Both the position numbers and the translations under genes were made by a program. From the NCBI RefSeq assembly GCF_003334315.1, contig NZ_QOWR01000029.1: a DNA stretch of 52,432 bases. One strand, 5' to 3'. Every line of letters starts with the position of its first letter. Position 1 is the first letter of the stretch. The DNA comes from Escherichia coli. Lineage in GTDB: Bacteria; Pseudomonadota; Gammaproteobacteria; Enterobacterales; Enterobacteriaceae. This document shows, piece after piece, positions 52,248 through 52,432 of the stretch. The notes beneath the pieces were generated by a model, which saw only the letters and a program-made list of their open reading frames with translations, made no database searches and had not been told where the DNA came from.

Positions 52248-52432
52248 TTGACAACATCTGGTACGATTCGCCCGCAGCCATCACTGACCACGGGCGAAAG
52301 TGTAAAGCAGGTGCCTTACCATCCTGACCTGACAACCGGATATGCGGGGATTACTCCCATAAGCGCTAACTTAAGGGTTGAACCATCTGAAGAATGCGAC
52401 GCCTCGGTGCCTCGTTAAGACGATGCCTCGCG

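Follow-up and report, generated by a model that had tools for sequence, protein, structure and literature searches.

The window analysed here, a stretch of 52,432 nt from Escherichia coli contig NZ_QOWR01000029.1 (assembly GCF_003334315.1), ends 185 bp beyond the stop codon of entD. What are these last 185 bp? A sequence-only reading had called no ORF in positions 52248-52432, had not recognised the sequence, and had held that truncation at the window edge prevented the assessment of any feature there, be it a small RNA, a toxin-antitoxin leader or an insertion-sequence end.

The stretch downstream of entD and its continuation in identical genomes

The upstream context is that of the E. coli enterobactin region, with a fepA ORF (49152-51452) followed by entD, whose TAA stop codon lies at 52245-52247. 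The ORF list starts entD too early, at a GTG at position 51477, and carries it through the spacer repeats; the annotated start is at 51627. The fepA-entD spacer contains palindromic repeats of the REP/BIME type (51481-51568); in the Rfam search ES036 (CssrF) scored 40.5 bits there, which exceeds its gathering score (37.6), and naRNA4 matched in part.

Downstream of entD only three short frames were found (31 and 56 aa on the plus strand, 37 aa on the minus strand), none of them credible, in agreement with the earlier statement that no ORF is to be called. When 51400-52432 was searched against Rfam (E≤10), nothing credible was obtained for 52248-52432, the best match being a chance-level miRNA hit (E=6.9). 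A consensus scan for promoters and terminators on both strands of 52100-52432 detected no promoter-like and no terminator-like site; given this result, neither an outward IS promoter nor a canonical terminator is claimed here. The sequence can nevertheless be recognised: numerous complete E. coli chromosomes, among them those of K-12 MG1655, C, ATCC 8739 and C600, match the 185 bp at 100% identity, and the stretch contains a complete IS186 terminal inverted repeat. Over 3185 nearby positions, MG1655 and the window show 3 differences, none of which falls within the 185 bp. Two strains without any mismatch in the final 6 kb of the window, 13C1065T and 2017.01.04CC, were therefore checked as well.

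These identical genomes supply the extension that the window edge withholds. In K-12 the window is followed by an IS421/IS186-family transposase gene (minus strand), hokE (minus strand) and ybdK; RefSeq NC_000913.3 gives, in reverse orientation, sokE, hokE, IS186B (608007-609351, insL2), a 107-bp spacer and entD. The same order, IS421/IS186-family transposase, hokE and then ybdK, was observed in 13C1065T and 2017.01.04CC. K-12 and one of these two strains have a transposase gene of 1113 nt (InsL, a DDE protein of 370 aa), which is frameshifted in the other strain. In these genomes the DNA to the right is therefore not plain intergenic sequence, since insL, hokE/sokE and ybdK follow; nor did truncation prevent assessment, because a full 23-bp inverted repeat lies inside the window. 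By extrapolation from the identical genomes, the genome from which the window derives would carry a complete IS186, of which the window shows 75 nt only. Past the window edge (excerpt L001, positions 4592-4860, plus strand), the PGAP annotation has a 'hypothetical protein' on the strand opposite the hokE/mokE leader; this frame is frameshifted or has an internal stop in most strains inspected, and probably represents a false gene call in the region of sokE.

Our reading, to which we give a probability of about 0.93, is that the 185 bp form a chromosome/insertion-sequence junction, made up of an IS186 end and the severed 3′ untranslated tail of the hokE mRNA. The arrangement itself is already known, as the annotated IS186B junction of K-12. 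The features are as follows:

51627-52247, plus strand: entD coding sequence, to which the annotated entD of K-12 and other genomes maps; left boundary of the stretch
52248-52357, minus strand: predicted 3′ UTR of the hokE mRNA, orphaned, parted from hokE by IS186 (from contiguity in intact genomes)
52267-52298, minus strand: 14-bp terminal hairpin, UUCGCCCGUGGUCA-GUGA-UGGCUGCGGGCGAA, between the convergent entD and hokE
52309-52317, minus strand: putative fbi (fold-back inhibition) element, AAGGCACCU, complementary to the hokE mRNA 5′ end GGGUGCCU (tac)
52344-52358, no strand assigned: left half of the IS186 target palindrome, GCGGGGATTACTCCCCGC (from the empty-site sequence; includes a copy of GGGATTACTCCC)
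52358-52380, no strand assigned: IS186 terminal inverted repeat of 23 bp, CATAAGCGCTAACTTAAGGGTTG (repeat pair in K-12; also at IS186A)
52381-52432, minus strand: IS186 non-coding interior, downstream of insL (from the match to other IS186 copies)

The hokE tail and the hairpin next to entD

The empty site was rebuilt from K-12 by removing the IS and one copy of the duplication, which gave a 479-bp query. In IS-free genomes (strain 63-2 and others) the sequence downstream of the hokE stop codon runs unbroken into that of window positions 52357 to 52248; in 63-2, the empty site is 100% identical to the query and hokE lies 121 bp from entD. On the intact locus, Rfam family RF01794 (sok, which covers the leader of the hok strand) scored 84.4 bits (its gathering score is 59), and the first position of this match places the 5′ end of the hokE mRNA at GGGUGCCUGAAG. 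The reconstructed mRNA of 407 nt, from this 5′ end to the end of the entD-hokE spacer, folds with an energy of -171.2 kcal/mol (z=-6.4); its 3′ end is a predicted one. The 3′ UTRs of hokA, hokB, hokC (with the IS removed) and hokE share one order of elements: stop codon, GC hairpin, spacer, GCACC(C) and 3′ hairpin. In addition, the sequence UUUACACUU follows fbi in both the hokE and the hokB 3′ UTR. Contiguity in intact alleles, the whole-mRNA fold and positional homology make it very likely that 52248-52357 is the 3′ UTR of hokE. Thus, the toxin-antitoxin leader that had been listed among the possible features is half right: 52248-52357 belongs to the type I hokE/sokE locus, but as a trailer, a 3′ UTR with an fbi element and a terminal hairpin on the strand opposite to entD.

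In hok mRNAs, a helix between the 5′ end (tac) and the 3′ end (fbi) keeps the full-length mRNA closed until 3′ processing strips fbi (PMC9841398). In both the MFE and the centroid fold of the hokE mRNA, nt 1-8 pair with AGGCACCU, which corresponds to window positions 52309-52316 on the minus strand. This helix is short, with 7 Watson-Crick pairs and one G-U pair, and when the duplex is taken by itself its energy does not exceed chance expectation (-15.2 kcal/mol, with 48 of 500 shuffles as good), whereas the corresponding duplexes of hokA (0/500) and hokB (3/500) are clearly significant. The tac-fbi assignment in hokE leans on the fold of the complete mRNA and on homology of position, and not on duplex energy. 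The GCACC core is invariant and lies at an equal distance from the stop codon in hokA, hokB, hokC and hokE. Within hokE no covariation of tac and fbi was detected, both being invariant in the 9 alleles compared; across the hok paralogs, fbi also differs where tac position 7 is changed, though with bulges.

The hairpin at 52267-52298 is presumed to be the 3′ end, or terminator, of the full-length hokE mRNA. On the minus strand, that of hokE, it has a predicted energy of -24.4 kcal/mol (z=-5.5). The variants found in nine hokE alleles are only U-G to C-G and G-U to A-U, one-sided changes that keep the pairing. No U-tract was found at this hairpin, and the terminator scan was negative there.

Could the 110 bp instead be the 3′ UTR of entD, with the hairpin as the entD terminator and the link to hokE incidental? 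The hairpin begins 20 nt past the entD stop codon, folds on the plus strand too, and stands between genes that are convergent in intact genomes; convergent gene pairs commonly share terminators. However, on the plus (entD) strand its energy is only -15.8 kcal/mol (z=-3.0), poorer by 8.6 kcal/mol, because three G-U pairs turn into C-A mismatches. No T-run follows on the plus strand, where the terminator scan was likewise negative. Furthermore, the hairpin accompanies tandem hokE copies that lie away from entD (excerpt L005, 2171-2260, and excerpt L010), and the flanking UUUACACUU recurs, as noted above, in the hokB 3′ UTR, far from entD. We consider an entD terminator with an incidental link to hokE unlikely. 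It could also hold alongside the assignment to hokE, the hairpin then being a bidirectional element that serves both convergent genes.

It is highly improbable that a separate small RNA or a small protein is encoded in the stretch. The candidates for a protein are a 56-aa frame with a TTG start (52248-52418) and a frame antisense to the hok tail, and in their favour K-12 RefSeq carries two small proteins opposite 3′ UTR hairpins of hok genes, YncP at hokB and YsaE at hokA (positions 877-945 of excerpt L013 and 1401-1472 of excerpt L014 of NC_000913.3), while the window has a plus-strand ATG at 52342. In the intact allele this ATG opens a frame of 45 codons, but the IS brings in a stop that shortens it to MRGLLP* (52342-52362), and its position does not match that of the yncP start. 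The 56-aa frame cannot be a conserved gene, because it spans a chromosome/IS junction that is missing from most E. coli genomes. With neither an Rfam match nor a promoter-like site on either strand, the small RNA offered by the sequence-only reading found no counterpart, unlike its insertion-sequence end, which corresponds to 52358-52432.

The IS186 end and its target site

In K-12, the inverted repeats CATAAGCGCTAACTTAAGGGTTG and CAACCCTTAAGTTAGCGCTTATG mark the two ends of the element. The first of these is complete at 52358-52380, and its partner lies 1.3 kb away in the identical genomes. All 75 nt of 52358-52432 match exactly to IS186A, to IS186B and to the IS of strain 13C1065T. In all genomes checked insL is on the minus strand past the window edge, and hence the window holds the transposase-distal end of IS186; the insL stop codon is expected ∼97 nt past the edge. 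IS186 is multicopy and mobile, with a median of 2 places per genome and a maximum of 23, and its presence at this site varies among strains. Just 75 nt of it are visible in the window, which could suggest a solo end or deletion fragment rather than a whole element. This would be hard to sustain: 1728 records cover at least 80% of the 185 bp, with 100% identity among the matches listed, and every identical genome examined has a full-length element with insL (frameshifted in one genome) and both inverted repeats.

In K-12 the IS is flanked by a 12-bp direct repeat, GGGATTACTCCC, whose copy in the window is at 52347-52358. The empty site reads GGGGATTACTCCCC at the target, a palindrome of the form GGGG-N6-CCCC. 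Read on the minus strand, it makes up the hairpin that immediately follows the stop codon of hokE, and half of it remains in the window. This post-stop hairpin, GCGGGGAGUAAUCCCCGC, has a predicted energy of -25.5 kcal/mol (z=-6.2). RefSeq places the boundary of IS186B at the equivalent of 52355, 3 nt outside the 23-bp repeat; the exact end of IS186 is ambiguous by a few bases, as the palindrome of the target GGGGATTACTCCCC lengthens the apparent inverted repeat. The target consensus of IS186, which SaiSree et al. are said to have described in 2001, is reportedly the GC-rich palindrome GGGG-N6/7-CCCC, with a duplication of ∼8-12 bp.

How often is this site occupied? The uninterrupted entD-hokE site was found in 3590 of 5426 complete E. 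coli genomes, and the K-12-type IS186 junction in 1727. A query designed for IS186 in the opposite orientation matched, at 100% identity, in 286 genomes. These counts are per feature and not mutually exclusive, and occupied and empty sites together exceed the number of genomes because many strains have tandem hokE copies. Strain TUM18780 (excerpt L005, 297-4211) has two hokE copies in tandem, and a separate IS186 is inserted at each of them, with the duplications GGGATTGCTCCC and GGGATTACTCCC. The two orientations, together with the different duplications of TUM18780, point to at least three independent insertions at the hokE site.

The hok mRNA post-stop hairpin is thus a recurrent target of IS186, which is a modest addition to the existing annotation. 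This fits the known preference of IS186 for GC-rich targets (PMC3903273); a variable length of the IS186 duplication is the subject of the title of Sengstag 1986, as cited in PMC3562002. Because the preferred target of the IS coincides with a conserved hok hairpin, the same toxin-antitoxin locus has been struck repeatedly, in both orientations, across E. coli, and the site may serve as a textbook case of an IS preference for GC palindromes coinciding with a conserved toxin-mRNA hairpin.

In various E. coli, the whole hokE unit is tandemly duplicated between entD and ybdK, the copies being ∼500 bp apart, and this is often the case. In strain E14, genes for SDR-family oxidoreductases take the place of the entD-side neighbour of the tandem hokE. 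In BL21(DE3) (NC_012892.2, 568244-568490), the hokE match of the B lineage ends at query position 350 of the reconstructed locus, which suggests that B-lineage strains may have a second disruption upstream, in the hokE leader, besides the downstream IS186.

Proposed consequences for hokE and comparison with other hok loci

The comparison of occupied and empty sites shows that IS186 entered the loop of the post-stop hairpin, in the GC-rich palindrome GGGGATTACTCCCC that lies ∼20 nt past the stop codon of hokE, and duplicated ∼10-12 bp of the target. This insertion parted hokE from its own fbi element and terminal hairpin. In intact alleles, the fbi-tac pairing would hold the complete toxin mRNA in a closed form that is neither translated nor bound by Sok, and the terminal hairpin would end the hokE transcript opposite entD. 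In the interrupted allele, we infer that hokE transcripts enter IS186 and lack fbi and normal 3′ processing. From the hok/sok literature it would follow that, with neither fold-back inhibition nor normal processing, the hokE locus is no longer a regulated killer system. According to a statement in PMC7232551, which cites Pedersen and Gerdes 1999, none of the five hok loci of K-12 is functional, the causes being insertion elements, point mutations or rearrangement.

The detached remnant of hokE is probably inert. At most, it may end read-through transcripts that come from IS186, which could reach it since insL and hokE are on the same strand, or entD transcripts from the other side. An active tail, in which RNAs that exit IS186 gain fbi and the hairpin, pair in trans with the tac of the truncated hokE mRNA and help to silence the toxin, strikes us as very doubtful indeed; if it were true, the repeated capture of IS186 at hokE and hokC would represent a selected taming of the chromosomal hok loci, beyond a target preference. 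For annotation, the right edge of the window is best described as 'IS186 end' and 'hokE 3′ UTR remnant (fbi plus terminal hairpin)', and no gene should be annotated for the 56-aa frame across the junction.

The closest known system is IS186B of K-12 (insL2, IS4 family), to which the IS end in the window corresponds in sequence over 75 nt, in its entD/hokE flanks, in orientation and in duplication; nothing of substance differs. IS186A of K-12 (870-2250 within NC_000913.3 14500-17800) is inserted in the homologous post-stop hairpin of hokC/gef, GGGGATCACTCCCC, where the hokE hairpin has GGGGATTACTCCCC, and it has likewise left an orphaned 3′ UTR, that of hokC, with fbi and a terminator, beside dnaJ. 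Its orientation relative to the hok gene is, however, opposite to that of the IS at hokE. The hokC remnant also differs in having a classical U-tract terminator and a longer tac-fbi helix (-17.9 kcal/mol, versus -15.2 kcal/mol for hokE). For gef/hokC, the view given in PMC3562002 is that the downstream IS186 disrupts fbi; the same paper has the transcript terminating within the element.

With the paradigm of the family, hok/sok of plasmid R1, the hokE tail shares the order of post-stop elements, the 5′-3′ closing helix and the stable 3′ hairpin. Unlike the mRNA tails of the hok family, the hokE tail described here no longer adjoins the gene to which it belongs. A distant blastn search of plasmids with the rebuilt hokE mRNA did not return R1 hok/sok, and yielded almost only near-identical E. 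coli hokE copies; the comparison with plasmid hok loci rests on the literature, the DNA being too diverged for blastn. Several of the E. coli records in this search are chromosome-sized, and one Hok/Gef locus, 78% identical, was recovered from a Klebsiella record.
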